Source: Parcubacteria group bacterium (GTDB taxonomy: Bacteria; Patescibacteriota; Minisyncoccia; Moranbacterales; UBA2206). Taken from it: a stretch of DNA of 64,000 nt. The translations under genes were made by a program, and so were the position numbers. The notes beneath the pieces were generated by a model. It was not told the DNA's origin. It was given only the letters and a program-made list of their open reading frames with translations, and made no database searches. The DNA lies in contig JBAZUU010000001.1 in the NCBI GenBank assembly GCA_041661275.1, positions 165,057-229,056 on the forward strand, given 5' to 3'. Shown here piece by piece: positions 8,559 to 54,694 of the stretch. Every line of letters starts with the position of its first letter. The first letter of the stretch is position 1.

Positions 8559-8564
8559 TAAAAC

Positions 8565-8702
8565 CGTCATCCCGAGTGAAGGCTCAATTCTTATTGAGCC
8601 TGAGTCGAGGGATCTACTAATTGCTATTGCAAGTGCTAATATTTAGTAGATTCTTCGACTTCATTCCCCCGTCAAGACGGGGTCATTCCGCTCAGAATGA
8701 CG
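8565..8702. repeat. MITE-like palindromic element, family 1 copy B
   Basis: ccgtcatcccgagtg ... cgctcagaatgacg. Inner gagtcgagggatct ... agattcttcgact. Begins 7 bp after the PBP1A stop and supplies the first in-frame ATG (8697) of the uppP ORF. Confidence 0.75.
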
Positions 8703-9533
8703 AATGCCATTTTTATGACCTTATTCCACGCCATCATCCTCGGCCTTATCCAGGGTTTCGGAGAATTTCTCCCCATCTCTTCTTCCGGGCATCTCATTCT
8801 TGCGCCCTGGCTTTTGAATTTCCCCGATCCAGGGCTGTCCTTTGATGTGGCGTTGCATTTCGGAACATTGATTGCTGTCGTTTTATATTTTTGGAAAGAC
8901 TTTCTGGAAATAATATGCATAGCGTTTTCCTCCTCTCCCTTTGGGAGAGGATGTCGCGTCTTCGCGACAGGAGAGGGTTCAAAATATAACAAAAATATTT
9001 TCTGGCTCCTCGTCATCGCCACCATCCCCGGCGCTCTGTTCGGATTTCTTCTCGAAAGCAAAGCGGAAACAATTTTCCGAAACCCTTTGTTAATAGCAGG
9101 CACATTATCTATTGTGGGGCTAATATTATATCTAGCCGACAAATATGCTTCACATAAAAGAAATATTAACGAGCTAACAAAAAAAGATGCCACGCTTATC
9201 GGCCTCTCCCAAGCTTTCGCCATTATTCCTGGCGTTTCTCGCGCCGGCGCAACTATTACGACTGGATTATTTTTAGGCCTTGATCGCGTGTCCGCCGCCC
9301 GATTTTCATTTCTCCTTTCCGCCCCAATCATTCTTGGCGCAACCCTTGTTAAGATAAAATATATCGCTGCCGCTGGCACACTGGAAATTGTCGCCATCCT
9401 CACCGCCGCCCTCTCCGGCTACTTCGCCATCAGTTGGATGCTAAAATTCATCGAGCGTGTCAGTTACAAAGTTTTCTTTTGGTATAGATTGGCATTGGCA
9501 GTCATCATTGTCCTGGTCTGGTTTTTAAAATAA
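8697..9533 (+). CDS. uppP: undecaprenyl-diphosphate phosphatase UppP/BacA
   Basis: GFGEFLPISSSGH and PGVSRAGATITTGL are BacA signatures. An alternative start is at 8715. Contains an in-frame 51-bp repeat insert (see 8929-8979). Confidence 0.85.
   Translation: MTNAIFMTLFHAIILGLIQGFGEFLPISSSGHLILAPWLLNFPDPGLSFDVALHFGTLIAVVLYFWKDFLEIICIAFSSSPFGRGCRVFATGEGSKYNKNIFWLLVIATIPGALFGFLLESKAETIFRNPLLIAGTLSIVGLILYLADKYASHKRNINELTKKDATLIGLSQAFAIIPGVSRAGATITTGLFLGLDRVSAARFSFLLSAPIILGATLVKIKYIAAAGTLEIVAILTAALSGYFAISWMLKFIERVSYKVFFWYRLALAVIIVLVWFLK
8929..8979. repeat. family 2 multi-hairpin element inserted in-frame within uppP
   Basis: cctcctctccc-tttg-ggagagg / gtcgcg-tctt-cgcgac / aggagaggg. It is the reverse complement of 1459-1512 except for a compensatory change in the middle hairpin. 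Length 51 bp (17 codons), encoding about SSSPFGRGCRVFATGEGS in a loop where E. coli BacA is about 12 aa shorter. Confidence 0.65.
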
Positions 9534-27295: not shown

Positions 27296-28555
27296 ATGAC
27301 TACGCTTCTCATAATCCTGGCAATTTATTTGCCATTTCAGCTAGCGCTTAATCCAAGCGAGGGAATAGACCTGGCGTCAATAAGAGTTTTTATTCTTCTT
27401 ATCTTTTTTCTGTGGCTGGCGGAAGGTTTTCGAAAAAAACGCCTGAATATCGCCTCAAACTCAATAACTTACCTTTTGGTTGTTTTTCTATTTCTGAGCG
27501 CTTTTTCCTTTTTTTGGGCCAAAAATCAGGACTTTGCTATGCGGAAAATCCTTTTTCTTCTTTCAATTTTTCCGCTGTATTTTGTGGCCAGTGATGTGAT
27601 ATATGACAAGGAAAAAATGATAAAAATAGTTACGCTCCTGGTAGTTTCCGGAACGTTGGCGGCTGCCGTTGGAATAGTCCAGTTTTTTTCTCAATTTGTT
27701 TTTGGGTTGGAAAGAGTGTATAAACTTTGGGCTGATTTTGTGGCTATGCCGTTTTTAGGCTCCAGTGCCGGAAAAGCAGTCCTTGAAAATCCTTCCTGGC
27801 TGGTGAATATTTCCGGGCGTACTTTTTTGCGAGCTACTTCCACTTTTCCCGATCCGCATATGTTGGCGCTATATCTGGGAATGCTTATTCCTCTTTCGGC
27901 CGGACTATTTTTGAAAACTAGAAAAACTTTTTATCTCGTCGCGTTTCTCATTATGCTCATGGCTGATGTTCTGACATTTTCCAGAGGCGGGTATCTCGGG
28001 CTTCTTGTTGGTGGTATTTTTCTTCTGATTGTTTTTTGGAGGAAGATGGCCAGGAAGTATAAATTTTTTATCCTCGGCTTTGCGGTTCTTATAGCCATCG
28101 CTTTTATAGCTCCTGGTCCGATTTCTAGTCGCTTTAGTTCTATCTTTAATCTTCAGGAAGGCTCGAATGTTGGTCGCCTGGATATGTGGCAAAAGTCATG
28201 GAAAGTGGCGGTAAGCCACCCAATATTAGGAGTGGGAATAGGTAATTATTCTCTGGAGATTAAGCCAAATGCTGACTATCGTGAACCGATCACAGCCCAT
28301 AACACATATTTGGATATTGCCGCCGAAACGGGAATTATTACGGCACTCGTCTGGATTGCTCTTCTTACTTCCGCAATTATTATTTTTCTCAAAAAATCCA
28401 GGTATGATAATTTTTATCTAATGATGGCAGTTTCTCTGGTTATTTTTGCCGGACATCAAATTGCCGAGACAGCCATATATTCCCCGGTAGTTTTAACACT
28501 GTTTGTAATTATTATTAGTTTCGTTAATGTCAGAGAAAATGAAAAAATATCTTAA
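27296..28555 (+). CDS. Wzy_C/O-antigen-ligase-family membrane protein
   Basis: 419 aa polytopic with a Wzy_C-type periplasmic loop region. Confidence 0.6.
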   Translation: MTTLLIILAIYLPFQLALNPSEGIDLASIRVFILLIFFLWLAEGFRKKRLNIASNSITYLLVVFLFLSAFSFFWAKNQDFAMRKILFLLSIFPLYFVASDVIYDKEKMIKIVTLLVVSGTLAAAVGIVQFFSQFVFGLERVYKLWADFVAMPFLGSSAGKAVLENPSWLVNISGRTFLRATSTFPDPHMLALYLGMLIPLSAGLFLKTRKTFYLVAFLIMLMADVLTFSRGGYLGLLVGGIFLLIVFWRKMARKYKFFILGFAVLIAIAFIAPGPISSRFSSIFNLQEGSNVGRLDMWQKSWKVAVSHPILGVGIGNYSLEIKPNADYREPITAHNTYLDIAAETGIITALVWIALLTSAIIIFLKKSRYDNFYLMMAVSLVIFAGHQIAETAIYSPVVLTLFVIIISFVNVRENEKIS

Positions 28556-29699
28556 TCTGGAAAATTATTTTCTGCTGGTCATTTTTCTTTTGCCGGCTTA
28601 TCTTTTGCGTTTTACTATTTTTAAAATACCGGAAAATTTATGGGAGATATTAGCGGTGATATCTATTATTTTAGCGTTGGAAAAAATCAAGAAAGAAAAT
28701 AATTTCACTCTTTCCGGATATGAGAAGAAAATAATTTTTCTATTTTTGATAATAATTATTGGGCTGGCTTTGGGAATGATAAAAAGCGGAAATTATTCTG
28801 TGGGCTTGGGCATAATAAAAAGTTGGTTTCTGGTTCCATTTGCTTTTGCGTTTTTAGCCAATAGAATTATTGAAGACAAAAAAAGGCTTTATTCCAGCCT
28901 TTATTTGTCAATTTTGATTGTAGCAGTTATTGCTCTTATATATAAATTTTTAGGGATACTAACTTTTGACGGTCGGCTCCAGGCTTTTTTTAATTCGCCA
29001 AACTATTTGGCGATGTTTTTGGCGCCAGGAGTCATTATCGGAGTTTTCAGCAGTGGACTTAAGAATCTTAAGTTACTTAAGATTCTTAAGTTGATCATTA
29101 TTGCACTCGCAATATTTTTCACTTACTCTTACGCTTCCTGGATTTCGATTATCTTCGCGGTTCTTATTATTTTTTTCCTCACCCACAAAATTTCCGGAAA
29201 ACACATTCTTTTTCTTGTTTTGATTTTTCTGATTGTTGTTTTTCTTTCGAAGGATACTTCCAAATTCCAAGATCTGGCAAACTACAATTCCCGTTCTTCA
29301 TTAGCTTCCAGAATAATGATTTGGCAGTCAGCTGAAAAAATAGCAAAAGACAATTATCTGATCGGCATCGGTCCGGGAAATTTTCAGGATAAATATCTGG
29401 AATATCAAAAATATTTTCCGCCATATCTCCAGTGGGCGGCGCCGCATCCGCATAATTTATATCTCGCTTTTTGGCTAAGCGCCGGCCTAATTGGGCTGCT
29501 GGCATTTATTGGAATTTTATATTTATTCTTTACCAAGGTAGAGATGAGGCAGTCTGCGATGATAGAGACGAGGCACTGCCTCGTCTCTACAGTAGCGGCA
29601 GGTATTATTATTTATTTTCTCCTTCACGGCCTGGTGGACACGACTTATTTCAAAAACGACCTGTCGGTCGTTTTCTGGATGGCAATATTTTTGGTCTGA
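28527..29699 (+). CDS. Wzy_C/O-antigen-ligase-family membrane protein (paralog)
   Basis: 390 aa polytopic with AAPHPHNLYLAFW. Contains a cttaag-repeat-encoded LKNLKLLKILKL segment. Confidence 0.6.
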   Translation: MSEKMKKYLNLENYFLLVIFLLPAYLLRFTIFKIPENLWEILAVISIILALEKIKKENNFTLSGYEKKIIFLFLIIIIGLALGMIKSGNYSVGLGIIKSWFLVPFAFAFLANRIIEDKKRLYSSLYLSILIVAVIALIYKFLGILTFDGRLQAFFNSPNYLAMFLAPGVIIGVFSSGLKNLKLLKILKLIIIALAIFFTYSYASWISIIFAVLIIFFLTHKISGKHILFLVLIFLIVVFLSKDTSKFQDLANYNSRSSLASRIMIWQSAEKIAKDNYLIGIGPGNFQDKYLEYQKYFPPYLQWAAPHPHNLYLAFWLSAGLIGLLAFIGILYLFFTKVEMRQSAMIETRHCLVSTVAAGIIIYFLLHGLVDTTYFKNDLSVVFWMAIFLV

Positions 29700-38600: not shown

Positions 38601-39056
38601 CTAAGCTGTTTTTTGCGCCCGGCTTCTTTCTGATTGGGTCAGTATGTATATTGTCATTACCATCATCGTTTCTATCGGAAGAATATTTACTCCAAAAATC
38701 ATTTCCGCGGTTGTGCCGATCAGTAATATTATCCAGCAAATCATTCTCGTTTTTCCTCCGAGCATCATCATCATAGCGATAAAAATCGAAATACAAATGG
38801 TAATTACTATTATGATAATATAAGTTATTATGGCGAACTCAATTAAGTCTATTAAGTCTTTGAAAATGGCGGCCATTAGAGCCAGAAGATACATCCAATC
38901 AGAAGTAAGGCTGAATCTTTTGGCCATCTTCATCATTCCCCAAGGGGTTTTTGATTGAATTATATTTTTTATATCCTTGGCGGTATTGGGAGTGCTTCGT
39001 TTTCGATCTCTGTTTCTCGCGGCTTGCAGATTTTGTTGTTTCTCGTAATCAAGCAT
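38601..39056 (-). CDS. hypothetical membrane protein in the T4SS-like operon
   Basis: 3-4 TM helices. Start taken as the ATG at 39054-39056, because the ORF-track GTG start lies inside the intercistronic repeat. Confidence 0.4.
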   Translation of the reverse strand: MLDYEKQQNLQAARNRDRKRSTPNTAKDIKNIIQSKTPWGMMKMAKRFSLTSDWMYLLALMAAIFKDLIDLIEFAIITYIIIIVITICISIFIAMMMMLGGKTRMICWIILLIGTTAEMIFGVNILPIETMMVMTIYILTQSERSRAQKTA

Positions 39057-39060
39057 AATT

Positions 39061-39179
39061 GTCTGAACCACTGATTTTCACATGAATTCACATGATTTCA
39101 CTGATTTTTATTATTAAAATTGTTGTTATTTTTTATTCATGTGTAATCAGGATAATCAGTGCGAATCAGTGGTTCAGAC
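39061..39179. repeat. intercistronic palindromic element (family 3, copy a) overlapping the virB4 TGA stop
   Basis: Arms gtctgaaccactgatt (39061-39076) and aatcagtggttcagac (39164-39179). The interior carries CACNTGATT / AATCANGTG motifs around an AT-rich centre. Confidence 0.7.
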
Positions 39180-40982
39180 TTCTTCCGCTAATTCTTTTTT
39201 GGCTGCTTCAATTTCCAGAAGTTGCGCCGGATCAGTGGTGATTATCTGATCTTCGGAATATGAAGCGATGACTTTGATAGCGACATGTTTGGTGCCGGCA
39301 AAAAATATTCCCTCTCCAACGTTACTTTCGAGAAGCAAAAATTTTTCCTGATCAGTAAGATAGAATGTTTCCGTGATGACATCAATGCCGGCCGGTGATT
39401 GTTTCAAGAGAAGCTGGAGTGATGAGTTGGTGACGATCGCTTTTCCGTAGCGTGATGATAAAAAGTCGTTGACATCCTGGGTGATGGTGGTGAGGCCGGT
39501 GTAATATTTGCGGCAGCGCTTGGCGATGCCGAAAAGAAAAGATGCCGCGTCTTCATATTTCATCATTACCCAGGCTTCATCGACCAAAACCAATCTTTTA
39601 GTAAAATTAGTGCGCATTTCGTTCCAGACGAACTGCAAAACGATATACATAGCCACCGGTCGCATCTCCTCTTCCATATCGCGCAGGTTAAAAACCATCA
39701 GCTGATTATCCACCTTGATGTTGGTGGTGTTATTGAGAAATCCGGCAAAAATTCCTTCGGTGTATTTTTCCAGGCGTATGGCCAAATTTTCTCCGCCATC
39801 CATCGACCGCAAAACTTCCCAAAGATCGGTCATAGTGGGAAATTGATCAGGGGTAAGCAAATTGAAATTGGCTTGCGGCGTGATGTCACGGACGGAATAT
39901 GTTTCACGGATAGCCCGGTCAAGGATAGAATCCTCTTCCGGGGTGATGGATCCAAGCATAATGTGGAGAAGTCCGAGAAGATGAGCGATGTTGTTTCGCA
40001 AAATATCTTCCGGATCATCATCTTCTTTCAGGCGCGGCAGATCAAACGGGTTAATGTGATTTTGGGAACTCAAAGAAATCTTGATGAATGTCCCGCCGAC
40101 CGAATCACACAAGTGCTTATATTCATTTTCCGGGTCAATAATGATGACGTTCACCCCCAGCATCAGAGAGCGCAGAGTTTCCAGTTTGATAGTATAACTT
40201 TTTCCGGCGCCGGATTTGGCAAAAACCACCATATTGGCATTTTCCAGTTGAAACCGGTCGAAGATGATGAGACTGTTGTTGTGGCGGTTGATGCCATAAA
40301 GAATCCCGCGGTTGTCAGAAAGAGTTGAGGAAACGAAAGGAAAGGTAGTGGAAAGCGGAGCGCTGTTCATCGATGTGCCGATATCCAGTTCGTCATTGGC
40401 GATAGGGAGAGAGGAAACAAATCCTTGCTCTGTCTTGAAAACAGCCGGTTTTACATATACCAATTGAGCTTCCAAAATTGCCTCGATGGATTTGGCCAGT
40501 TCCGTCACTTCTTTTTCTGTTTCCCCGTAAGCAGTGATATAGAGGCCGAAGCGGAAAAATTTTTCCGTCCCTTGTTGCAATTTATCCCGCAGCTCGTCAA
40601 TATCTTTGACGGCTGTATCCAGCGCCGGATCGCGAATCATTCCTTTTTCCTGCTCGATATGCACTTCCGATTCCACTTGCGTGGCTGTTTTTTTGAGAGT
40701 TTTCAGGATGTCATAAGTATCGATGGGATGGATAAACATGGAAATATCGATGGGCATATCGATATTGATTATCGGGGAGAACCAGGCGCTTTGCAAGTAT
40801 CTCGGATAAGCGATAACGCCGATGGTGGAAACGAAAAGCTCTCCCACGCGGATATAGCGAGGCATCACTTTTATGGCCGAAGGAGCGATGAGATCAGAAA
40901 GTCTGGCCACGCCTTCCTGGTAGTATTTCTCACTGGCGATTATCTCGTCTTCTATCTCGTTTTTTTTGGAAAATAATGACAT
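39174..40982 (-). CDS. VirB4/TrbE-family T4SS ATPase, C-terminal ATPase portion
   Basis: Walker A FAKSGAGKSY, DEAW Walker B and the TQ...NDF region. The preceding region matches the VirB4 middle domain. Confidence 0.9.
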   Translation of the reverse strand: MSLFSKKNEIEDEIIASEKYYQEGVARLSDLIAPSAIKVMPRYIRVGELFVSTIGVIAYPRYLQSAWFSPIINIDMPIDISMFIHPIDTYDILKTLKKTATQVESEVHIEQEKGMIRDPALDTAVKDIDELRDKLQQGTEKFFRFGLYITAYGETEKEVTELAKSIEAILEAQLVYVKPAVFKTEQGFVSSLPIANDELDIGTSMNSAPLSTTFPFVSSTLSDNRGILYGINRHNNSLIIFDRFQLENANMVVFAKSGAGKSYTIKLETLRSLMLGVNVIIIDPENEYKHLCDSVGGTFIKISLSSQNHINPFDLPRLKEDDDPEDILRNNIAHLLGLLHIMLGSITPEEDSILDRAIRETYSVRDITPQANFNLLTPDQFPTMTDLWEVLRSMDGGENLAIRLEKYTEGIFAGFLNNTTNIKVDNQLMVFNLRDMEEEMRPVAMYIVLQFVWNEMRTNFTKRLVLVDEAWVMMKYEDAASFLFGIAKRCRKYYTGLTTITQDVNDFLSSRYGKAIVTNSSLQLLLKQSPAGIDVITETFYLTDQEKFLLLESNVGEGIFFAGTKHVAIKVIASYSEDQIITTDPAQLLEIEAAKKELAEEV

Positions 40983-41013: not shown

Positions 41014-41151
41014 CCGTCATTCTGAGCGGAATGACCCCGCCTTGGCGGGGGAATGAAGTCGAAGAATCTGCTAAATATTAGCACCAGTGATAATATATAG
41101 TAGATCCTTCGACTACGTCCAATAAGAATTGGACTTCGCTCAGGATGACGG
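41014..41151. repeat. MITE-like palindromic element, family 1 copy C, between the two virB4 parts
   Basis: ccgtcattctgagcg ... cgctcaggatgacgg. Inner gaagtcgaagaatct ... agatccttcgact. Carries an internal ccccgcc-tt-ggcgggg hairpin. Confidence 0.75.
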
Positions 41152-41852: not shown

Positions 41853-41948
41853 TCTCGAACCACTGATTAGCACATGATTATCCTGATTACACTTGATTTT
41901 TAAAATTCAGTGAAATCAAGTGTAATCAGTGATAATCAGTGGTTCTGA
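41853..41948. repeat. intercistronic palindromic element (family 3, copy b)
   Basis: Arms tctcgaaccactgatt and aatcagtggttctga. The upstream gene's TGA stop (41936-41938) lies within the arm. Confidence 0.7.
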
Positions 41949-42331
41949 TTTAGTATTTTACTCAACTCTTCTATCTTATCTCCGCTTATCTTCTTCCTCT
42001 CATGTATTATAGCATTTTTGTCTTTTCCTTTTTTCGGAATCACTATTTTTTCCGGCAAGCGATGCCAGACATACATTCGCGGGCGGAAGATATAGAAGAC
42101 GGAAGACGAAAGAAAAGCAATGAGCGGTTGGCCATACGGGCGGTAAAATGCCATGGCGCTGAAAACCGCGGCGATTATGATGGCGGCGATGATGAAGCCT
42201 TGAGTATCGAGAAAATTCCAAAAAACCAGCGCCACAACGCCACCCAATCCCAACCAGCCCAGCTGTTTGGCGGTGAGTGGTCCTACTATTTTATCTTCAA
42301 TGTCTAAAAATTGTGGAACGTTAAAAAGCAT
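41936..42331 (-). CDS. VirB3/PrgI-like small membrane protein
   Basis: 132 aa with two TM helices (LGWLGLGGVVALVFWNF; FIIAAIIIAAVFSAMAF), positioned directly upstream of virB4 as virB3 usually is. Confidence 0.45.
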   Translation of the reverse strand: MLFNVPQFLDIEDKIVGPLTAKQLGWLGLGGVVALVFWNFLDTQGFIIAAIIIAAVFSAMAFYRPYGQPLIAFLSSSVFYIFRPRMYVWHRLPEKIVIPKKGKDKNAIIHERKKISGDKIEELSKILNQNH

Positions 42332-42335
42332 AGCT

Positions 42336-42496
42336 GTCCGAACCACTGATTATCACTGATTTTCCTGATGACACGTGATTAGTGTCAGTGGCATTATTTG
42401 ATTAATATTTTTTATATATTACTTTACTTCTAAACTTTTTGCTCCGAAACAAATCAGTGAAATCATTTTAATCACGTGAGAATCAGTGGTTCAGAC
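42336..42496. repeat. intercistronic palindromic element (family 3, copy c)
   Basis: Arms gtccgaaccactgatt (42336-42351) and aatcagtggttcagac (42481-42496). Interior has cacgtgatt, cactgatt and aatcagtg motifs. The upstream TGA stop at 42491-42493 is in the arm. Confidence 0.7.
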
Positions 42497-43792
42497 ATCC
42501 TTGAGATTTACCACATTCCTCGGCAACTCTTCTTTTCCATCATCATATGGCGTGGCCGGAGCGATGTGCAACGGCTGCGGCTCGATCGGCGCTTGTGGTC
42601 TTTCGGGGACAAACGGTTTCGGCGGCGCTGGTTGCATTTGCGGTCTGACAGGAGCCGGCGGAGTCACGGGAGCTGGTGGAGAAAATTTTTGTTCTTTTTC
42701 TTTCTCAAACGGCAACTTTTGCGGGGAGGAAAAAACTAACTGACTGGTTTTGGATTGCTCAACTGGTTTGAACTCCGGAGAACCGAATCTCACTTCTCTT
42801 ATATTTTGGGAAGCATCTTGCCTGTGTTCAATATCTGATTCTTCCGGCTTTTGGGGAATATGATAGTGTTCGTAATTTTTTTCCAGATTATTTTGCGGCG
42901 CTTGTTTCTCAGGAGAAAACTGTGGCCGTATCGGCGCTCCAGCGGATTGGATATTATCGAAATTATAAACAGGCCTGCTTACCTGCCTGCCGGCAGGCAT
43001 GGCTTCTTGCTTCATACTTTCTTGTTTAGCCATTGCCGGAAAAACTATCTGTTTTTTTGTTGTGTCGATTGTTACCGGCGTTTTCTCATCGTATGATTTC
43101 AGGATATATGACAACTTATTCCTGTCTTCCGCGGACAATCTTTTGGCGTTTTCGTTCTGAAACATATAGTTCCCGCGAGTGATGGTGTCATGGGATTCAT
43201 AACCGACGCTATACGTATAATCCGAAACCCAGTTTTTGATTGTCGGACGAACCGGTTCTTGCCCTCCTCGTATTTTTATCGATTCGGACGTGACAAATTG
43301 ATCGGCAACAGTCGGGTATTTCGCCAGGGCGTCGGGCAGGGAAATTTTCGTCAGTTGCGCCTGGTAGGCTTTTTCCAGGCTGTCATCGTTGATAATTTTT
43401 TGGATAACTATTTGAGAAATTTCCTTGGCGGTGTTGAGATCTACGCCCATTTCTTTGTACAGGATTGACGGAAAATCTTCCAAATGAATCTCGCCGAAAT
43501 AATAACTGCGGATAGCGCGAGAAATGTCGGCTAGTTGCAGGAGTTGTAAATTGTATGTTTTTCCGATTTCTTGGATTTTATTGCTAGTTTCTTGAGAAAC
43601 AAGCTTATCTTTGATATTTTCAGGCAATGTTAAAAATTTTTCTTGTCTTTTTTCTACATCCCCATCGCGTTCATCTACTAGATTTTTTGTTACTGAAACT
43701 GCTTGGGGTACAGTAAATTGGCGAAGTTTTATTTTTTCTAAAACATCTGGCTTCACATATTTCAATACTTGAGGAGAATAATCTTGTAGCAT
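42491..43792 (-). CDS. hypothetical protein with a Pro-rich C-terminus (433 aa)
   Basis: No TM segment or signal peptide. The C-terminal PPAPVTPPAPVRPQ region is low-complexity. Confidence 0.4.
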   Translation of the reverse strand: MLQDYSPQVLKYVKPDVLEKIKLRQFTVPQAVSVTKNLVDERDGDVEKRQEKFLTLPENIKDKLVSQETSNKIQEIGKTYNLQLLQLADISRAIRSYYFGEIHLEDFPSILYKEMGVDLNTAKEISQIVIQKIINDDSLEKAYQAQLTKISLPDALAKYPTVADQFVTSESIKIRGGQEPVRPTIKNWVSDYTYSVGYESHDTITRGNYMFQNENAKRLSAEDRNKLSYILKSYDEKTPVTIDTTKKQIVFPAMAKQESMKQEAMPAGRQVSRPVYNFDNIQSAGAPIRPQFSPEKQAPQNNLEKNYEHYHIPQKPEESDIEHRQDASQNIREVRFGSPEFKPVEQSKTSQLVFSSPQKLPFEKEKEQKFSPPAPVTPPAPVRPQMQPAPPKPFVPERPQAPIEPQPLHIAPATPYDDGKEELPRNVVNLKDV

Positions 43793-43834: not shown

Positions 43835-45847
43835 CTAAATAGGAACCCCAAGATTTCTTAATGCCTTAACATTAGCAGAGCTTAACCGCTTACTTAGTTC
43901 ACCTTGAGCTTGCGGTTTTAGGCTAATATACGAATCCAATAATGCAGCTGATAGCTTTGCCCTGTTTGGCCCTGTTAGTTTTTTATCAACAACTGCCCAG
44001 TTTTGATCTCCCCATTTTTCAGCTGTCATTTTACCCATTTCATCTTCGATTACTTGATATTTAATCATGTCGGGTGTCCATAATGGATTTGCTGTTTTAA
44101 TATCTTGATATTCTTTAGAATTAATATCCTCTGCTTTACTGATAGCAACAACATCAGTTCTGTTTTGTTTGACCTTGGCATCAAGTGCGCTCTTGATACG
44201 TGTTGACCCCTTTGTATTTCTAAGAAATTCGTTATAAACATCACTATCCATTTCTTTCAAATCGGCTAAGGCATAGGCGGCTGCGGCATCACCCTTTTTC
44301 GCAAGATCCTGAAGCTCAGGTAATGACTTCTCTTTTTTATATTCATCCGCTTGTTTTTTCATATCTCTTTCTTCAGCGCTTTTGGAGCCTAATGCAGTAG
44401 CCATTCTTGCTTCTCTGCTCTCTCTACTAGATTTAAACTTATTTTTAATTTCGCCATACCGCTGTTGTACTCCTCCAGGAATTCCAGTTGCCTTAAATCC
44501 CATCCAGGGTGCTTTATATGTTCCCCTGCCGACCCACTTCATAAATTTTTCTCCTCTTCCCACAATCGCCCCAGCGCCAGCGATACTCATTTTTTGTGCC
44601 GAGCCGATGCCGACCCATAAAATGACGATCGGGATAGAGAAAAAAGCGAAGGCGGCAATAGTCTTAGCAATCTCCGGTTGCGTTTGCGCTGTGGCTATTA
44701 TGCTCATCTGTCCTTTCTTCTTAGCAATTTCCCCCATCATCTTCGTAGCAACAACCATCATGAAAATCATAACCGGGCCAAAGAATGCGTATTTGAAAAG
44801 GGTGTCCCACCACTCACTGGCGTATTTAGAAAGGAAAGGAACGATTGATCCGACAAAAGCAATAGAAGCAAAAATTATAAGAATTGCCAAAACTACTATT
44901 CTAATAAGAAGCAAAATGGCGATAATAATCAGGGTTACCATAAACATGAAGGTAAAAACAATAGCAGCTATAAGAAAGCTCATATCCGAATTTACACTCA
45001 CAGACCCACCAACCTTAGGGTTAACAATATCGGCTAATCCCCCATTATTTGCAAAATCTATAAAAATTTTTCCGTCTTTAATATTGGATCCCAAGCCATT
45101 TATCAGGTAATACATTATAACATTGGAAAAGTCTATAATAACTCGGGCAATGGGAAAACTAAAATTGACCAAAAGAGCCATTATGATAAGAGTCACTAGC
45201 AGACTTTTGTAGCTATATTTTGAAATTTGAAAAACGGTGCAGAAGGCGGAGAAAAGAAGAACGAGAATGAAGGCTACGTTTAACATATCTCGGACAAAGC
45301 CCCATAATTCATATATAACAGAGTTATCCAAAACTGCTTTCATATTGGCCGTATCAATAACCCATACAAAAAGAGTGCTAGCGGCTACTATAAGAGCACC
45401 AATAAATTTCAGAACGTAAAGCAATAAGCATTTTATCCCCTTAAGCGAAAGGACAGCATCGAGCAAACCTATTCCACAAACATCTTCAGTTTTTTGACCC
45501 ACTCCTATTGTGCCTTCAGAATTTTTATCAAGTGTTGCTTGTGTTCCTGATTTCAATTCGTCTGCCTTTGCTTTATCCTCCGTGTATCCTACGAAAATTG
45601 AATCACCGCCTCCGCTAGCGCTAGAAGTTGTGAGTGTTTTTTTACACGCACTCTCGCTGTCTGACGTAAAATAATCTACTTCTGCAGAAAGCCCTCCCGT
45701 GTTATTTGTCTGATGGACGCAATATCCTGCTCTTGCTTTTTCCACTTTCCCCAATCCAAAACCAGCCACAATAAATACTGCGAGAAACATATAAAATACG
45801 ATTTTATTTTTCGTGTTTGTTTTCATTGTCTGGATTACCGAAAACAA
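43835..45847 (-). CDS. VirB6/TrbL-like polytopic membrane protein with a C-terminal hydrophilic domain
   Basis: Signal peptide, a 130-aa exodomain, at least 7 TM helices, and a 270-aa charged C-terminal domain. Confidence 0.55.
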   Translation of the reverse strand: MFSVIQTMKTNTKNKIVFYMFLAVFIVAGFGLGKVEKARAGYCVHQTNNTGGLSAEVDYFTSDSESACKKTLTTSSASGGGDSIFVGYTEDKAKADELKSGTQATLDKNSEGTIGVGQKTEDVCGIGLLDAVLSLKGIKCLLLYVLKFIGALIVAASTLFVWVIDTANMKAVLDNSVIYELWGFVRDMLNVAFILVLLFSAFCTVFQISKYSYKSLLVTLIIMALLVNFSFPIARVIIDFSNVIMYYLINGLGSNIKDGKIFIDFANNGGLADIVNPKVGGSVSVNSDMSFLIAAIVFTFMFMVTLIIIAILLLIRIVVLAILIIFASIAFVGSIVPFLSKYASEWWDTLFKYAFFGPVMIFMMVVATKMMGEIAKKKGQMSIIATAQTQPEIAKTIAAFAFFSIPIVILWVGIGSAQKMSIAGAGAIVGRGEKFMKWVGRGTYKAPWMGFKATGIPGGVQQRYGEIKNKFKSSRESREARMATALGSKSAEERDMKKQADEYKKEKSLPELQDLAKKGDAAAAYALADLKEMDSDVYNEFLRNTKGSTRIKSALDAKVKQNRTDVVAISKAEDINSKEYQDIKTANPLWTPDMIKYQVIEDEMGKMTAEKWGDQNWAVVDKKLTGPNRAKLSAALLDSYISLKPQAQGELSKRLSSANVKALRNLGVPI

Positions 45848-45941
45848 TTTTTAATTTGAAATTTTTAATTTTTAATCAATTTGTAATTTGGAAATTTTTA
45901 AATTTAAAATTCAATAAAAATTTCGAATTAAAAACTAAAAA
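45848..45941. repeat. AT-rich AATTTTTAATT-type repeat tract
   Basis: tttttaatttgaaatttttaatttttaat... Same motif family as 2790-2927. Confidence 0.45.
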
Positions 45942-46313
45942 TTATTTATTCTTATCTTTATTTTCCATTGTATTGATAATTTTGGAAAAAATCATTGCCA
46001 ATTCCTGCGATTCTCTCCATAATTCTCTACATTTCACTTTATGTTCCGGAGCTGCTTTGGCTAAAACTTGCAGCCAATACATACTTTCCTTAGTCTCTTT
46101 CTTGCATATATGAATTTTATTTTTAAAATCTTTTCTTGAACTGGCTCCATTTGCCTCACAGTAGTTGGCGCCGATACTAGTAATGGATCTTATTAATTGA
46201 CCGATAATAGGAATGGTAATTATATCTTTTTTAATATTCCTCAAAAACTCTATTGTATTTTCGCTAAGCTTTGTTGTTCTTTCTTCTAGATTATACTTTT
46301 CAGATTTACTCAT
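45942..46313 (-). CDS. four-helix-bundle protein of the 23S rRNA IVS / Avd-like family
   Basis: 123 aa. IGQLIRSITSIGANYCEANGASSRKDFKNKIHICKKETKESMYWLQVL resembles PF05635/TIGR02436. Confidence 0.65.
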   Translation of the reverse strand: MSKSEKYNLEERTTKLSENTIEFLRNIKKDIITIPIIGQLIRSITSIGANYCEANGASSRKDFKNKIHICKKETKESMYWLQVLAKAAPEHKVKCRELWRESQELAMIFSKIINTMENKDKNK

Positions 46314-46359
46314 TTAAAATTCTGTCATTTAAAATTTATTAAAAATTTCAAATTAAAAA
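46314..46359. repeat. AT-rich AATTAAAAATT-type repeat tract
   Basis: aaatttattaaaaatttcaaattaaaaattaaaaatt. Confidence 0.45.
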
Positions 46360-47511
46360 TTAAAAATTCCTTTGGGGTGGCGGGAAGCTGGAGCCGGAGC
46401 TGCGGGTGGTGGAGGTCGAGCCGGAATAGTCGGAAGAGCTAGTGCCGGAAGAACCGGAAGTTGACGAGCCGCCGACATATTTGTAATAGAGAGGATCTGA
46501 GCTTAGGCTGTCGACTGATGATGATGAGGACGAGCTGGAAAGCACGGAACTGGATGATGTGCTGGAGCTGTAATAGGAAGACGGACTTAGGCTTCCGGCC
46601 AGCCCGGTAAGCGTGCTGGAGGAAACGCCCAGTTTGCTCGCGGCCATACTGATGCCTTGCTTCAGAGCCTGTGTCATCAGCTTGGAAACCAGAGCGGTGA
46701 TCACTTCTTCCGGGTGGGTGGCGGCGGCGATAACTTTGTTGCCGGCATCCATCGTATTGGCCTTAGTTAAGGGAATCACAGAACCCGGAAGAGTTATTTT
46801 GCCCTTGCCGTTTGATCCTTCACCCACGCCGATGCCGCCAAGATAGGCTTTAGATTTAGTTTCAGCCAGTTTTCTTTCTTCCGCTTTCTTTTTTTGATAT
46901 TCACTTTGGGCATTCACATCAAATGACCAGGGGTTGTTGATGCCGGAAAGATAGCTGTTGAAATTTTTGAAATTTCCGCTGGAAAACATTGATGACGGAT
47001 TGCCCGAATAGGAAAAAGTCGGATCCTTTTTACTGATGGTGTTAGCCTTGGCCATCGCGACCAATTGGCTGGCATATCCTGAGCTGCCACTGCTGCTGAA
47101 ACCTTCGCTAAGGCTGGAATAGCTGCTGGTTCCTTTGCCGGACGTAATTTTGCTCAAATAATCGTTCATATAGAGTTTAGTGTTGTTGTCTGGAGTTTTA
47201 AAGAGGTAAGTTTCCCAATCAGTGATAAATTTGGCGCTGCCACTCTTCCCGCTGCCGGCGATTGCCGCATCCACTTGTTTGTTGAGGGTTGAAATGGCTT
47301 GCTGTTTCAACATTCCCAAGACTATTCCCTTGATCCGGTCGCGGATGTCTTCCAGCATTTGCTTGTAGGTGAATCCGGGAATGTCCGGCCAGAGGGCATG
47401 AGCTTTAGGGGTGGTTAGGGGAGAAGAAAAGATAAAAAGACAAACAAAAATAACAAGAATAAATCTTTTATAGTTTGGAAGCAAAATATTTTTTTTGTTT
47501 TTCTCTCCCAC
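46360..47511 (-). CDS. secreted Ser-rich hypothetical protein
   Basis: TM/signal N-terminus and long poly-Ser tracts at the C-terminus. Confidence 0.4.
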   Translation of the reverse strand: MGEKNKKNILLPNYKRFILVIFVCLFIFSSPLTTPKAHALWPDIPGFTYKQMLEDIRDRIKGIVLGMLKQQAISTLNKQVDAAIAGSGKSGSAKFITDWETYLFKTPDNNTKLYMNDYLSKITSGKGTSSYSSLSEGFSSSGSSGYASQLVAMAKANTISKKDPTFSYSGNPSSMFSSGNFKNFNSYLSGINNPWSFDVNAQSEYQKKKAEERKLAETKSKAYLGGIGVGEGSNGKGKITLPGSVIPLTKANTMDAGNKVIAAATHPEEVITALVSKLMTQALKQGISMAASKLGVSSSTLTGLAGSLSPSSYYSSSTSSSSVLSSSSSSSSVDSLSSDPLYYKYVGGSSTSGSSGTSSSDYSGSTSTTRSSGSSFPPPQRNF

Positions 47512-50451: not shown

Positions 50452-50813
50452 ATAAAGATTTGAAGCTCATAATTATAACCGGCATATATTATCCCGCTGC
50501 CGTTTTGTCTCTTTGGATATTCTGGAAAGAATCTATGATGTTGACATTGATTTTGTTTATCCTAGCTATTATCGAGCTTATCGCCGCCAAGAGTCGCAAG
50601 CTCATGATTCTTTTTCTCCTCGGTTGCGTGGTCGGACCCGTAGTCGAGTCCGTAGCGATATGGCGGGGAAGTTGGAGCTATAGTTTGCCGGAGATATATA
50701 ACATTCCGTTGTGGCTGATTCCGGCTTGGGGGAATGTCACTATTTTTGTTGTTACATTCTACAAATTTCTTGGTCGTTTTAGTTGGTTAGAAAAGAAAGC
50801 CGATTCAGAATAA
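50448..50813 (+). CDS. small membrane protein, translationally coupled to the UbiA-like gene
   Basis: 4-bp overlap. 3-4 TM helices. Confidence 0.4.
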   Translation: MNKDLKLIIITGIYYPAAVLSLWIFWKESMMLTLILFILAIIELIAAKSRKLMILFLLGCVVGPVVESVAIWRGSWSYSLPEIYNIPLWLIPAWGNVTIFVVTFYKFLGRFSWLEKKADSE

Positions 50814-51713
50814 TGAGCTCAATTTTTTCCAATTTTCTATTGTCAACTCTTGCGCGCGGCAAGTCGGATTGATTCCGGCTTTTTTAATTTTTTCTTCAGT
50901 TTCACTTTTCCCTAGATGAAAACTAGAGGATAAATTATTAAGCAAAGTTTTTCTCTTTGAAGAAAAACCGGCCTTAACTATCCGAAAAAACTTTTTATTT
51001 TCCTCCTGACTTACTTCTTTCTTCTTACTTCTTACTTCTATTCTTATGACCGCGCTATCCACTTCCGGCACCGGCCAGAAGGCCTTTTTATCCACATAAA
51101 ACAGTAGTTTCACATCGGCATAATATTGCACGCTAACCGCCAAAATACTCATCTGTCCGGGACTGGCTACGATACGTTCGGCCACTTCTTTTTGCACCAT
51201 CAAGATCATTTCGGTTGGTGGATATTTAGTTTCCAAAAAAAGTTGAATGATGGGTGAGGTAATATAATATGGAATATTAGCAATGACCTTGTAATCATAG
51301 TCCGTCATCCCGAGCGAAGTGAGGATTTTATCCGAACGCAGTCGAGGGATCTGCCCTTGATTATTGCTGGTAGTATTATTTAGTAGATTCTTCGACTCCA
51401 TTCCGCCTACGGCGTCATTCCGCTCAGAATGACGGAGCATTTCCGGCAAATTTACTTTCAAAATATCATCATTAATAATCTTCACTTTGTCATTCCCGCG
51501 GAAGCGGGAATCCAGTTTCGTAGCTAAATTTTTATCAATCTCAATGGCCAATACTTTTCCGGCGTGCTTAACTAGTTCTTCTGTTAGCACTCCTTCTCCT
51601 GACCCGATTTCCACCACAAAATCATCCGTGCTCAAATTAGCAGACTCAATAATTCTTTCCAGCACGGCTTTATCCTTCAGAAAGTTTTGTCCGAGTGATT
51701 TTTTTGGTTTCAT
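50805..51713 (-). CDS. rsmA: 16S rRNA (adenine1518/1519-N6)-dimethyltransferase KsgA/RsmA carrying an in-frame MITE insertion
   Basis: KKSLGQNFL, EIGSGEG and NIPYYITSP are KsgA motifs. About 45 extra codons, RHSERNDAVGGMESKNLLNNTTSNNQGQIPRLRSDKILTSLGMT, sit just before the NIPY motif and are encoded by repeat D. Confidence 0.8.
   Translation of the reverse strand: MKPKKSLGQNFLKDKAVLERIIESANLSTDDFVVEIGSGEGVLTEELVKHAGKVLAIEIDKNLATKLDSRFRGNDKVKIINDDILKVNLPEMLRHSERNDAVGGMESKNLLNNTTSNNQGQIPRLRSDKILTSLGMTDYDYKVIANIPYYITSPIIQLFLETKYPPTEMILMVQKEVAERIVASPGQMSILAVSVQYYADVKLLFYVDKKAFWPVPEVDSAVIRIEVRSKKKEVSQEENKKFFRIVKAGFSSKRKTLLNNLSSSFHLGKSETEEKIKKAGINPTCRAQELTIENWKKLSSLF
51302..51435. repeat. MITE-like palindromic element, family 1 copy D, inside the ksgA coding sequence
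   Basis: ccgtcatcccgagcg ... cgctcagaatgacgg. Inner gcagtcgagggatct ... agattcttcgact. Read in-frame on the minus strand with no stop codon. Confidence 0.8.
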
Positions 51714-54534: not shown

Positions 54535-54694
54535 CCGTCATCCTGAGCTCGACCCTGAGTGAGCGTAGCGAGTCGAAGGGGAAGAGCGAAGGATCTATAA
54601 ACGATTACCAGAAGTTATATTTATATGGCAAAACTTGTGGTTATAATTAGCAGATCCTTCGCGTCGGTTTTACGACCGACGCTCAGGATGACGG
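54535..54694. repeat. MITE-like palindromic element, family 1 copy E
   Basis: ccgtcatcctgagc ... gctcaggatgacgg. Inner cgagtcgaagg...gaaggatct ... agatccttcgcg. Lies between the comM stop and the next gene's start. Confidence 0.75.

Follow-up and report, generated by a model that had tools for sequence, protein, structure and literature searches.

The window, that is, the whole 64-kb stretch of DNA analysed here, carries a ksgA/rsmA gene with a 134-bp repeat copy inside its reading frame, a second, smaller hairpin in the same gene, and four further copies of the repeat between genes. The features are listed below, with positions counted from the first letter of the window.

Copy A, 2105-2258, no strand assigned: intergenic, between a yebC-like gene and ruvC; stems ATCTC/GAGAT and ATTCC/GGAAT
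Copy B, 8564-8703, minus strand: intergenic, between a large upstream ORF (6012-8558) and uppP; polarity as in copy D
Copy C, 41014-41151, plus strand: intergenic, upstream of a VirB4/TraG-like gene; polarity opposite to that of copies B and D
ksgA/rsmA, 50805-51713, minus strand: 302 aa from the MKPKK start; Pfam RrnaAD 1.8e-64, TIGR00755 2.5e-73
Copy D, 51302-51435, minus strand: 134-bp inverted heterodimer of CGTC-tagged hairpin units, in frame as KsgA residues 94-137
Unit Ub of copy D, 51302-51352, plus strand: CCGTC-ATCCC-GAGCG-AAGTGA[GGATTTTATCC]GAACGC-AGTCGA-GGGAT-CT; stem ATCCC/GGGAT
Spacer between Ua and Ub of copy D, 51353-51384, minus strand: ACTAAATAATACTACCAGCAATAATCAAGGGC on the coding strand; conserved in copies B and C as well as in the ksgA copies of the orthologues
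Unit Ua of copy D (5′ on the coding strand), 51385-51435, minus strand: CCGTC-ATTCT-GAGCG-GAATGAC[GCCGTAGGC]GGAATGG-AGTCGA-AGAAT-CT; stem ATTCT/AGAAT, self-consistent
Small CGTC-1/NTS-like hairpin, 51488-51514, plus strand: TGTC-ATTCCCGC-GGAA-GCGGGAAT-CCA; minus-strand peptide DSRFRGND inside KsgA
Copy E, 54535-54694, no strand assigned: intergenic, between a ChlI-like gene and a G5-domain gene; one unit is the short form GTCATCCTGAGCG[TCGGTCGTAAAACCGAC]GCGAAGGATCT
Predicted tryptic peptides within the KsgA insert: NDAVGGMESK, NLLNNTTSNNQGQIPR and ILTSLGMTDYDYK

The terminal motif CCGTCATCCYGAGCG, allowing up to 2 mismatches, has exactly 10 matches in the window, arranged as five inward-facing pairs, compared with 0.07 expected from the shuffled window, and no shuffle reached 10. 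The copies delimited by these pairs, 134-160 bp each, have the ends CCGTCATCCYGAGCG...CGCTCAGRATGACGG in common and contain a nested inner inverted repeat, AGTCGARGRATCT...AGATYCTTCGACT. The five repeats and the inner inverted repeats described in the initial annotation are thus confirmed, with its coordinates off by at most 1 base, as is its placement of four copies between genes and of copy D within the ksgA frame without a stop. Copies A, B, C and E each lie between co-directional genes and take up nearly all of the intergenic space there, and all copies fold as DNA better than shuffled sequences (z = -2.7 to -9.8). All ten half-units open with (C/T)CGTC-AT..., the CGTC tag being unpaired and the stem beginning with A-T. 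In four of the five copies, the stem variant of the left half differs from that of the right, and each variant is self-complementary within its own half.

The KsgA insert and its history

Copy D reads through in frame, its translation being RHSERNDAVGGMESKNLLNNTTSNNQGQIPRLRSDKILTSLGMT, 44 residues (1 + 132 + 1 nt) with no stop. When the window KsgA is aligned with that of B. subtilis, the alignment splits into residues 4-94 and 141-299; the net gain relative to empty orthologues is ~40 residues, and the insert replaces about 4 codons. An insertion of about 45 residues exactly before the NIPY motif had been described; the insertion itself holds, with 44 residues, but its end lies 8 residues ahead of NIPY. 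No Pfam or NCBIfam family is found for the insert peptide. In the AlphaFold model, the core has a pLDDT of 84-98 and matches solved KsgA structures with a target-normalised TM-score of up to 0.89, whereas insert residues 95-137 fall below 50; the predicted core is thus intact and bears a disordered loop. In the ksgA flanks, codon positions 1 and 2 are much more conserved than position 3, which, together with the intact predicted core, argues that the host gene is still under selection. The insert is probably translated and functionally neutral.

The insert had been taken to be lineage-specific, but the window gene and four other ksgA genes (loci L001, L003, L004 and L005) carry it at the same codon, with orthologues 81-68% identical sharing it and insert-bearing KsgA orthologues extending from 81% down to about 65-70% identity. 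The insert DNA stays repeat-like in these orthologues, and the opposite pattern, a shared segment without repeat-like DNA, was not found. Insert identity is 0.81-0.89 among the copies of the window, L003, L004 and L005, and 0.75-0.79 for L001, compared with 0.76-0.80 between the window ksgA copy and its paralogues B and C. Among the four closest genes, identity at third codon positions is 0.75-0.84 in the insert versus 0.52-0.64 in the flanks, and the insert, in contrast to the flanks, is conserved to about the same degree at codon positions 1, 2 and 3. All orthologous copies stay open, and that of L001 contains frame-restoring indels, such that the 3′ end of its insert reads AQDD rather than LRMT. 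As identity to the nearest empty orthologues is only ~65% and about 4 codons are replaced, the insertion chemistry is not readable from the ksgA junctions. Judged from these comparisons, the insertion is old, orthologous and under constraint at the nucleotide level. Such constraint may reflect hairpin recognition or hairpin-templated repair; alternatively, an RNA-level role could account for the high nucleotide conservation.

Of 115 close KsgA homologues, most of them from CPR, 63 have an enlarged loop at the site of the insert, and recognisable repeat-derived peptides occur in 49 of those 63. At least four unrelated palindrome families at this loop have been confirmed at the DNA level, their stems being perfect while the loops vary among homologues. 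The window holds at least two further in-frame palindromes, in uppP and a Wzy-like gene. In-frame copies of the hairpin units of the 134-bp element occur in ksgA, mnmA, tsaD, a Mur ligase gene and hsdM. An in-frame palindrome is therefore not the rarity in CPR genomes that had been supposed, given the frequency of enlarged KsgA loops and the additional cases in the window. Many CPR proteins carry peptides translated from repeats (HPERS..EGS, SRFRGND, ETRQCLVS, PLPKGEE), which bears on annotation, protein family building and structure prediction, and in-frame repeat inserts flag permissive loops of conserved enzymes.

The smaller in-frame hairpin reported earlier for ksgA is also borne out. It has a TGTC tag, an 8-bp stem beginning with A-T, a 4-nt loop and the tail CCA, and is the only site in the window with all the features of CGTC-1 (CGTC tag, with TGTC or CCTC allowed, 8-bp stem, 4-nt loop and 3-nt tail near CCA; PMC3733652). 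Its peptide DSRFRGND equals R. conorii CGTC-1 peptides, being listed for that species in the supplement of PMC3733652, so the analogy with Rickettsia first drawn for the large element is literal for this hairpin, which follows the pattern of RPE-6 and dRS3. It differs at 2 positions from the 28-nt NTS consensus CGTCATTCCCGCGMAVGCGGGAATCYRG and misses the SRM pattern at one loop position. By sequence, it can be classed as a canonical CGTC-1/NTS-like unit. The segment encoding DSRFRGND is exactly as long as its counterpart in orthologues without the hairpin. GTAG-tagged REPs are also present in the source genome (29563-29592).

The hairpin unit and its gene neighbours

The repeated half-unit, referred to as U, is composed of an unpaired CGTC tag, a 5-bp stem beginning with A-T, an internal loop GAG(CG)...(AGT)CGA and a variable upper hairpin. 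In other words, five Watson-Crick pairs are followed by GAG/CGA, the 'loop' is a nested hairpin of 13-30 nt, and the tail is TCT; the internal loop is conserved, and tandem G·A pairs are possible there. The 5-bp stem covaries (ATCCT/AGGAT, ATTCT/AGAAT, ATCCC/GGGAT and others), and in the 126 distinct units of a genome-wide scan the covarying Y/R positions are C-G in 96, T-A in 28, T-G in 2 and C-A in none. Compensatory changes also separate Ub of copy D from its orthologues, the upper stem going from GGAT/ATCC to CGAC/GTCG and the basal stem to ATCCT/AGGAT. Across phyla, the unit keeps at least 27 bases in common, some of them at unpaired positions of the tag and loop. Single hairpins are common (87 of the 126 units stand alone), and shorter forms such as GTCATCCTGAGCGCAGCGAAGGATCT are present elsewhere. 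The repeat family, its copy number and the covariation of its hairpins are direct observations. The 134-bp segment contains no gene and consists of two different CGTC-tagged hairpin repeats in inverted orientation with their tags outward, and it resembles a REP dimer or REPIN. It is a heterodimer of two hairpin units rather than one transposon bounded by terminal inverted repeats, since there is no target-site duplication, no transposase partner, and the stem variants are self-complementary within halves. On the same grounds, of the earlier designation 'MITE-like palindromic element', the non-autonomous palindromic repeat read in frame is retained and the MITE with terminal inverted repeats is not.

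Several other identities were considered. No family was found by Rfam in the whole window at gathering thresholds or in the canonical element at E-value thresholds, a tRNA scan of the window gave no tRNA, and literature searches with DNA and peptide strings of the element returned nothing relevant. The conserved positions do not fit a hammerhead or other ribozyme core; the 3-nt bulge of a kink-turn is absent; the positions resembling an IncP nic site (ATCCTG) covary as a stem; Tn3 ends have the reverse orientation; and the likeness to the 16S 5′ end is only an 11-mer.

U is not specific to CPR. It occurs at at least 120 loci from many bacterial phyla, among the matches listed Bacteroidota, Verrucomicrobiota, Actinomycetota, Acidobacteriota, Bacillota, Chloroflexota, Planctomycetota, Pseudomonadota and Patescibacteria. 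Clustering of the neighbours of 131 U matches revealed no recurrent gene family, no transposase family recurs among 202 flanking ORFs, and the link to GIY-YIG genes surfaced through a directed search. In 80 metagenome loci picked solely by homology to a GIY-YIG protein, a U motif lies within 400 nt of the GIY-YIG gene in 59 and on both sides in 32. Near the gene, U motifs reach 2.33 per kb, versus 0.15 per kb elsewhere, a 15-fold local enrichment, and the tags point outward by 34:11 upstream and 39:12 downstream. The flanked proteins have ~97 aa and a single PF01541 domain (E = 1e-17). Among the GIY-YIG genes is that of Bifidobacterium moraviense DSM 109958 (L099:1634-1924). At least seven Watson-Crick-consistent stem variants occur near these genes, a count that is supporting only, because the loose regular expression used is noisy (55% Watson-Crick pairs vs 39% in shuffles). 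Thus, U units are associated with GIY-YIG genes. Within the 64-kb window, searches for a GIY-YIG gene and for a RAYT gene found none, and a RAYT-like gene is present in a Uhrbacteria locus (L044). Two of the copies have no BLAST match in plasmids and viral contigs give only one match for the element, so phages and plasmids are not obvious carriers.

Origin and persistence of the element

The published arrangement of ssnA genes is NTS-ssnA-NTS (PMC11893778). Since the layout of U-flanked GIY-YIG genes copies it, the 134-bp element looks like a gene-less derivative of a GIY-YIG mini-element. The explanation we regard as probable is that a gene-less pair of CGTC-tagged hairpins, derived from a U-GIY-YIG-U′ mini-element, was anciently inserted in the KsgA loop. 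The element would be a non-autonomous derivative, related to U-GIY-YIG-U′ as REPINs are to RAYTs or MITEs to insertion sequences, and the GIY-YIG genes bracketed by U would be Ssn-like. One copy would have landed long ago in a permissive KsgA surface loop, which joins the helix of residues 89-94 to the strand ahead of NIPY, kept the frame by chance, been translated as a disordered loop of ~44 residues, and passed vertically through a clade of Parcubacteria/Moranbacteria-like genomes. Ssn enzymes are site-specific ssDNA nucleases that bind NTS hairpins and cut just upstream of the tag; the activity demonstrated for them is ssDNA cleavage and not transposition, and mobilisation is put forward as a hypothesis in the same paper (PMC11893778). 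It is logical to suppose that a GIY-YIG nuclease mobilises or maintains the copies.

A different basis for persistence, possible and rather unlikely in our judgement, is that the copies are kept mainly as RNA, for example because they stabilise mRNA 3′ ends, serve in processing or terminate transcription; the ksgA copy would be conserved for a role in the transcript. This would suit the position of all four intergenic copies between co-directional genes, the T-runs that follow many copies in Hymenobacter and other genomes, the occurrence of T-G but never C-A at the covarying stem position, and the nucleotide-level constraint in the ksgA insert; REPs of the CGTC superfamily have also been argued to act as RNA elements (PMC3733652). 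However, no Rfam family matches, a simple terminator scan calls none of the copies, the T-run beside copy C runs antisense to the genes, and the 2 wobble cases are too few to choose a strand. SsnA, moreover, acts on NTS hairpins only as ssDNA and does not bind RNA (PMC11893778). An RNA role can nonetheless coexist with descent from the GIY-YIG mini-element, because it accounts for persistence and not for origin or spread.

It is equally a doubtful proposal that the hairpins are maintained as cis-acting ssDNA sites, recognised by an Ssn-type nuclease that would police ssDNA entering the cell or being replicated. Selection on the hairpin, not on the peptide, would then preserve both the ksgA copy and the DSRFRGND hairpin across genera, and the KsgA loop would be more than a tolerant site: a preferred target reached independently by CGTC-, GTAG- and other palindromes. 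If so, the hairpins of these DNA-scavenging, tiny-genome bacteria would not be junk.

It is very unlikely that the element is a classical MITE, that is, a deletion product of an insertion sequence that encodes a DDE transposase, with terminal inverted repeats through which it moves by cut-and-paste. The 15-bp terminal inverted repeats, the length of 134-160 bp and the several dispersed copies are as expected of one, but target-site duplications are found at none of the five copies, the 202 flanking ORFs reveal no recurrent transposase, most units are lone hairpins, the stem variants pair within each half and not across the element, and the ends flank GIY-YIG genes instead.

Three further readings can be set aside as highly improbable. 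Insertions in rRNA genes are a known feature of CPR genomes, and the ends of the element can pair and bring the flanks together, which might suggest intron-like removal from the ksgA transcript, or translational skipping, to yield KsgA without the insert; yet excision of 134 nt would join ...ATG CT|AC TAT GAT... into CTA CTA TGA, a frameshift followed by a stop, all orthologous copies are open, the compensating indels of L001 restore the downstream frame, and Rfam gives no ribozyme or intron match. There is scarcely more to be said for a selected, lineage-specific functional extension of KsgA whose repeat likeness is secondary: the insert is conserved in several orthologues, but the same DNA occurs four times outside genes, its three codon positions are about equally conserved, unlike those of the flanks, its 3′ part is read in different frames (LRMT vs AQDD), its pLDDT is below 50, and unrelated palindromes sit at the same loop in other orthologues. 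Finally, formation of the hairpins in place by replication template-switching would explain the unchanged length of the DSRFRGND segment and perfect stems persisting with variable loops, but the at least 27 bases conserved across phyla, unpaired tag and loop included, exclude independent local origins, and the 134-bp copy adds about 40 codons.

Comparison with known systems

In-frame palindromic repeats have been a Rickettsia curiosity since 2000, and RPE-1 and its relatives, the Rickettsia palindromic elements, are reportedly those of Ogata et al. (2000). The 134-bp element resembles them as a palindrome of ~100-150 bp inserted in frame in a housekeeping gene, tolerated in a surface loop, with other copies intergenic; as in RPE-bearing genes, the host gene appears to stay functional (open frame, selection on the flanks, intact predicted core). 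In contrast to Rickettsia, the host does not belong to the obligate intracellular alphaproteobacteria, the insertion is common to a whole clade, and the loop has been hit by several unrelated families. Rickettsia provides the precedent for in-frame insertion of a palindrome; the present case is an old insertion, passed on by inheritance, at such a repeatedly hit loop.

With MITEs (PMC10969869), the element has in common its small size, non-coding nature, inverted ends, dispersed copies and occasional in-frame insertion; unlike them, it has neither duplicated flanks nor a DDE-transposase parent, its hairpin units also occur alone, and the parent-like unit carries a GIY-YIG gene rather than a transposase. 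REPIN-RAYT systems (PMC3116915) are likewise inverted hairpin doublets that are dispersed, with single units that look like remnants, long and mostly vertical persistence, and a single-copy nuclease gene flanked by repeats as the presumed mobiliser. The element is nevertheless no GTAG doublet with a flanked RAYT: its tag is CGTC, the partner is GIY-YIG and not an HUH/Y1 transposase, and the U core is common across phyla.

The CGTC-tagged REP superfamily, to which the present repeats are assigned, includes Rickettsia RPE-6 (CGTC-1) and RPE-4 (CGTC-4) and Neisseria dRS3 (PMC3733652), and with dRS3 the NTS repeats. U and the small hairpin share its unpaired CGTC or TGTC tag and A-T-initial stem, and the 134-bp element, like members of the superfamily, occurs mostly as inverted dimers with conserved spacers, heterodimers being common, between co-directional or convergent genes, with in-frame intragenic copies and no adjacent transposase. 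U units, however, lie outside its limits of an 8-9 bp stem, a 4-5 nt loop and the tail CCA (PMC3733652): their five Watson-Crick pairs are followed by tandem G·A positions, a nested hairpin of 13-30 nt stands in place of the loop, and the tail is TCT. Their host range, CPR included, goes far beyond the five phyla reported.

With the NTS/SRM hairpins of Ssn nucleases (PMC11893778), U shares the CGTCAT start, the position on both sides of a ~95-aa GIY-YIG gene and the outward tags, and gene-less copies are dispersed in the genome there too, in their hundreds. The published SRM search pattern, by contrast, is unmatched by U and has 0 matches in the window, which also holds no ssn-like gene, and the main text of PMC11893778 says nothing of U, of copies within genes or of Patescibacteria. 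In 2013, no enzyme had yet been assigned to the CGTC class. The present repeats tie together Rickettsia-type in-frame insertion, a hairpin unit of many phyla and the newly characterised Ssn ssDNA nucleases, so that the spread and maintenance of RPE-like repeats becomes a testable question, for example, at a locus (L099) of the cultured Bifidobacterium moraviense.

Repeat copies and their hairpin unit

The sequence CCGTCATCCYGAGCG, with at most two mismatches, matches the window ten times as five pairs facing inward, against 0.07 matches in shuffled sequence, and no shuffle reached ten; the repeat family claimed by the initial annotation is thus real. Its five copies, A to E, and the gene that carries copy D are as follows.

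Repeat copies in the window and the host gene of copy D
2105-2258: copy A, intergenic, between a yebC-like gene and ruvC
8564-8703: copy B, intergenic, between ORF 6012-8558 (upstream) and uppP
41014-41151: copy C, intergenic, upstream of a VirB4/TraG-like gene
51302-51435: copy D, within ksgA
54535-54694: copy E, intergenic, between a ChlI-like gene and a G5-domain gene
50805-51713, minus strand: ksgA ORF, KsgA/RsmA by Pfam RrnaAD (1.8e-64) and TIGR00755 (2.5e-73)

As had been described, copies A, B, C, and E are intergenic, and copy D is read in the KsgA frame without a stop. The intergenic copies nearly fill gaps between co-directional genes. Alignment of the five copies shows conservation of both the outer and the inner inverted blocks, the latter being the nested repeat already noticed, and all five fold better as ssDNA than shuffles (z = -2.7 to -9.8).

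Scanning genomes, one per species, for AGATYCTTCGACT-N(12-42)-CGCTCAGRATGACG gave at least 120 loci, the hosts among the matches listed being Hymenobacter, Chthoniobacter, Gordonibacter/Eggerthellaceae, Bifidobacterium, Acidobacteriota, Clostridia, Peptoniphilus, Dialister, Chloroflexota, Planctomycetota, Gamma-, Alpha-, and Deltaproteobacteria, Omnitrophota, and several Patescibacteria. Given that the half-element is solitary in 87 of 126 distinct hits among these matches, the building block is a single hairpin unit, U, consisting in order of a (C)CGTC tag, a 5-nt stem beginning A-T, GAG(CG), a variable hairpin, (AGT)CGA, the complementary stem, and CT. At the two degenerate positions of its stem, the pairings among the matches listed are C-G (96), T-A (28), T-G (2), and C-A (0). 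The left and right units differ in stem variant in four of the five window copies, and every variant is self-consistent inside its own half (for example, B and D combine ATCCC/GGGAT with ATTCT/AGAAT, and A combines ATCTC/GAGAT with ATTCC/GGAAT). Stem covariation and these within-half variants mark U as a hairpin in its own right, and because each half is self-paired, the 134-bp element is an inverted heterodimer, with two hairpin units on either side of a conserved spacer. A TIR-bounded transposon is rejected, as the stems pair within halves and no target-site duplication is visible in the alignment of the five window copies, leaving the label "MITE" unsupported; one long hairpin fails on the self-consistency of the stems within each half. 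Plasmids essentially lack U (72,556 records), and 2.9 million viral contigs contain a single match; despite this near-absence, a U core of at least 27 conserved nt is common to many phyla.

Other repeats also occur in the window. A very AT-rich family (AATTTTTAAATTTAAAATT...-like, ~110 nt, arms 85% complementary) occupies three intergenic sites 43 kb apart (2808-2917, 45846-45955, and 46298-46376), and a GAACCACTGATT / AATCAGTGGTTC family, in direct and inverted copies (39044-39179, 41857-41948, 42319-42381, and 42451-42510), clusters near type-IV-secretion-like genes (VirB4/TraG-like, 39174-40982).

Copy D in ksgA

Copy D is read as 1 + 132 + 1 nt, giving 44 stop-free residues, and alignment of the protein to solved KsgA structures breaks into residues 4-94 and 141-299. 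The structural model that the initial annotation had called for (AlphaFold2, 33 homologues in the alignment) predicts the core confidently (pLDDT 84-98 by blocks; target-normalised TM-score to solved structures up to 0.89) and leaves residues 95-137 as a predicted unstructured segment (pLDDT <50) between helix 89-94 and strand 141-146, which precedes NIPY.

The segment is not lineage-specific, as had been supposed: the nearest KsgA homologues (81-68% identity) are also ~300 aa and contain it. When the window was codon-aligned with DNA of six orthologues (L001-L006), the element was found at one shared codon in the window, L001, L003, L004, and L005, and the loop was empty in L002 and L006 (PEMI-EKNNFQ-NYKV). 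The insert replaces ~4 codons and the closest empty orthologues are distant, so the insertion junction is blurred. An intron-like removal of the 134 nt is rejected, since exact excision leaves CTA CTA TGA.

In the four closest genes, conservation in flanking ksgA is 0.75-0.91 at codon positions 1 and 2 and 0.52-0.64 at position 3, the usual mark of purifying selection on a functioning gene. The insert is about equally conserved at all three positions (0.82-0.95 at 1 and 2; 0.75-0.84 at 3). Between the window and L003-L005, the small hairpin of Ub, one of the two units of copy D, carries double compensatory changes: the upper stem GGAT/ATCC becomes CGAC/GTCG and the next stem GT/AC becomes GC/GC, with tandem G·A positions retained; the basal Ub stem changes from ATCCC/GGGAT to ATCCT/AGGAT. 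One nested hairpin (12 nt) is gone from the L001 insert, whose 3' end is read in another frame (AQDD, not LRMT), with the KsgA frame nevertheless restored. Judged from these alignments, the insertion is an old one, evolving at the level of DNA rather than of protein. Between the window, L003, L004, and L005, the ksgA copies have pairwise identities of 0.81-0.89 (0.75-0.79 for L001), compared with 0.76-0.80 between the window ksgA copy and its paralogues B and C, which favours a single ancestral insertion and vertical descent. The nucleotide-level constraint could come from a protein that recognises the hairpin as ssDNA, from hairpin-templated repair or gene conversion, or from a role in RNA.

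The KsgA loop and other in-frame palindromes

Among 115 homologues parsed for the number of residues between D-x-L and NIPY, the loop is short (at most 24) in 52 and longer in 63. Recognisable repeat-derived peptides occupy it in 49: U-type (18), PLPKGEE-like (13), ETRQCLVS-like (10), ETPRRGVS (5), both of these GTAG-type peptides (1), and LPAGRQG (2). Three non-U families were verified in DNA at the same loop, namely GTAG-tagged AGACGAGGCAATGCCTCGTCT-CTAC in L207, GTAG-tagged GTAGAGACGCCCCGCCGGGGCGTCTCTAC in L209, and CCTCTCCCAAAGGGAGAGG in L208; the DNA of L002 has no palindrome there. In other phyla, U is also read through in mnmA (L083), at two places in tsaD (L024), in a Mur ligase gene (L105), and in hsdM (L109). 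On sequence grounds, the KsgA loop is an insertion hotspot in a genome full of such inserts. With the loop enlarged in so many homologues and more in-frame palindromes within the window, the view that copy D is unusual for a CPR genome is not supported.

Further in-frame palindromes in the window
8927-9004: in uppP (8697-9533), with an intergenic partner at 1433-1512 upstream of yebC
29563-29592, minus strand: GTAG-tagged REP in ORF 28527-29699, Wzy_C / O-antigen-ligase-like

The uppP family (~80 nt) contains TCCTCTCCC-NNN-GGGAGAGGA; the uppP copy is read as FSSSPFGRGCRVFATGEGS in undecaprenyl-diphosphatase, adding ~7 residues relative to E. coli UppP, and another frame of the palindrome gives the PLPKGEE peptides of many KsgA orthologues. 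The Wzy_C-gene REP (minus strand, GTAG-AGACGAGGC-AGT-GCCTCGTCT-CTAT) is read as IETRHCLVST near the C-terminus of the membrane protein, and in other CPR genomes the KsgA loop contains a member of this family (L207). The RAYT-like homologue of a Y1 transposase in Candidatus Uhrbacteria (L044:4067-4393; tblastn 3e-21 vs Pseudomonas RAYT) is consistent with GTAG-tagged REPs in CPR genes. An Acidobacteriaceae TsaD homologue of 494 aa (L024:5219-6703) has two in-frame U-derived segments, RSFDSAWRAGAPSSAQDDG and CHPERVRVADESKDL, and its Pfam domain is divided into two stretches. In KsgA itself, a second variable site after the VIRI strand (alignment columns ~281-310) carries repeat-like peptides (PSPVSSTRHPLPITGEED, PFPHPVRSKFLGKNLTDRPLPRGEVE, RPAYAKASAGEV, and LPTLKLRQA), which suggests that a second loop is permissive or targeted.

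Relation to CGTC repeats and Ssn elements

The CGTC-tagged REP superfamily was defined by Di Nocera et al. 2013 (PMC3733652) by a CGTC/TGTC tag that stays unpaired, a stem of 8-9 bp beginning A-T, a loop of 4-5 nt, and a tail close to CCA. Most of its repeats form inverted dimers, in many cases heterodimers; some copies are intragenic, and no transposase is dedicated to them. Members include RPE-6 and RPE-4 of Rickettsia and dRS3 of Neisseria (PMC3733652). In R. conorii, CGTC-1 peptides include DSRFRGND, VIPAKAGI, and SFPRKRES, and the dimethyladenosine transferase has a CGTC-1 dimer at its start (PMC3733652 supplement). The smaller in-frame ksgA hairpin of the initial annotation is indeed present (51488-51514): it is the only site in the window with all these CGTC features and encodes DSRFRGND, so that the analogy with Rickettsia palindromic elements is apt and, for this hairpin, literal. 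U units have the superfamily's tag and begin their stem with A-T, but their stem, loop, and tail fall outside its limits.

The DSRFRGND hairpin is present in 27 orthologues, with perfect stems and variable loops (GGAA, CTAC, and TTCT). Its segment spans 11 residues, the same length as in orthologues and distant KsgAs without the hairpin (alignment columns 101-115), and other KsgAs form a graded series (DSRFRGNDK > DKRFSGNKK > KKNFAGNKK > KNKFKNNKK). A 27-nt hairpin without net length change may represent ancient insertion followed by erosion, or replacement/conversion.

The Ssn family was characterised by Chenal et al. 2025 (PMC11893778). SsnA, a single-domain GIY-YIG protein of 94 aa, binds and cuts its target NTS, CGTCATTCCCGCGMAVGCGGGAATCYRG, as ssDNA and not as dsDNA or RNA; ssn genes have an insertion-sequence-like NTS-ssnA-NTS layout, and related hairpins flank thousands of homologues (PMC11893778). 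Among the matches listed, 5 of 120 U-bearing loci contain GIY-YIG genes (tblastn). U doublets bracket the gene in L099 (Bifidobacterium moraviense), a U unit adjoins it in L108 and L090, and CGTC-1-like hairpins flank it in L120 (Doudnabacteria). The L099 flanks are two near-identical composites of complete U doublets and adjoining arrays of truncated U 5' halves (GGTCATCCTGAGCGG..., ~30-35 nt spacing; 1300-2100 and 4170-4580).

In an independent test on 80 metagenome loci picked by homology to the L099 protein alone, a U-type motif lies within 400 nt of the GIY-YIG gene in 59 and on both sides in 32, with a density of 2.33 per kb close to the gene compared with 0.15 farther off. Tags point outward, upstream motifs being 34 plus-strand vs 11 minus-strand and downstream motifs 39 minus-strand vs 12 plus-strand. 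To our knowledge, transposition by Ssn enzymes has never been demonstrated. The 64-kb window holds no GIY-YIG or RAYT gene.

U-GIY-YIG-U loci have exactly the geometry of the 134-bp element, in which the gene is missing. Copy D is a hairpin dimer of the CGTC/Ssn type inside a Patescibacteria gene, a variation on a kind already known, with added interest from the KsgA-loop hotspot, the DNA-level conservation within a coding region, and the cross-phylum association with GIY-YIG genes.
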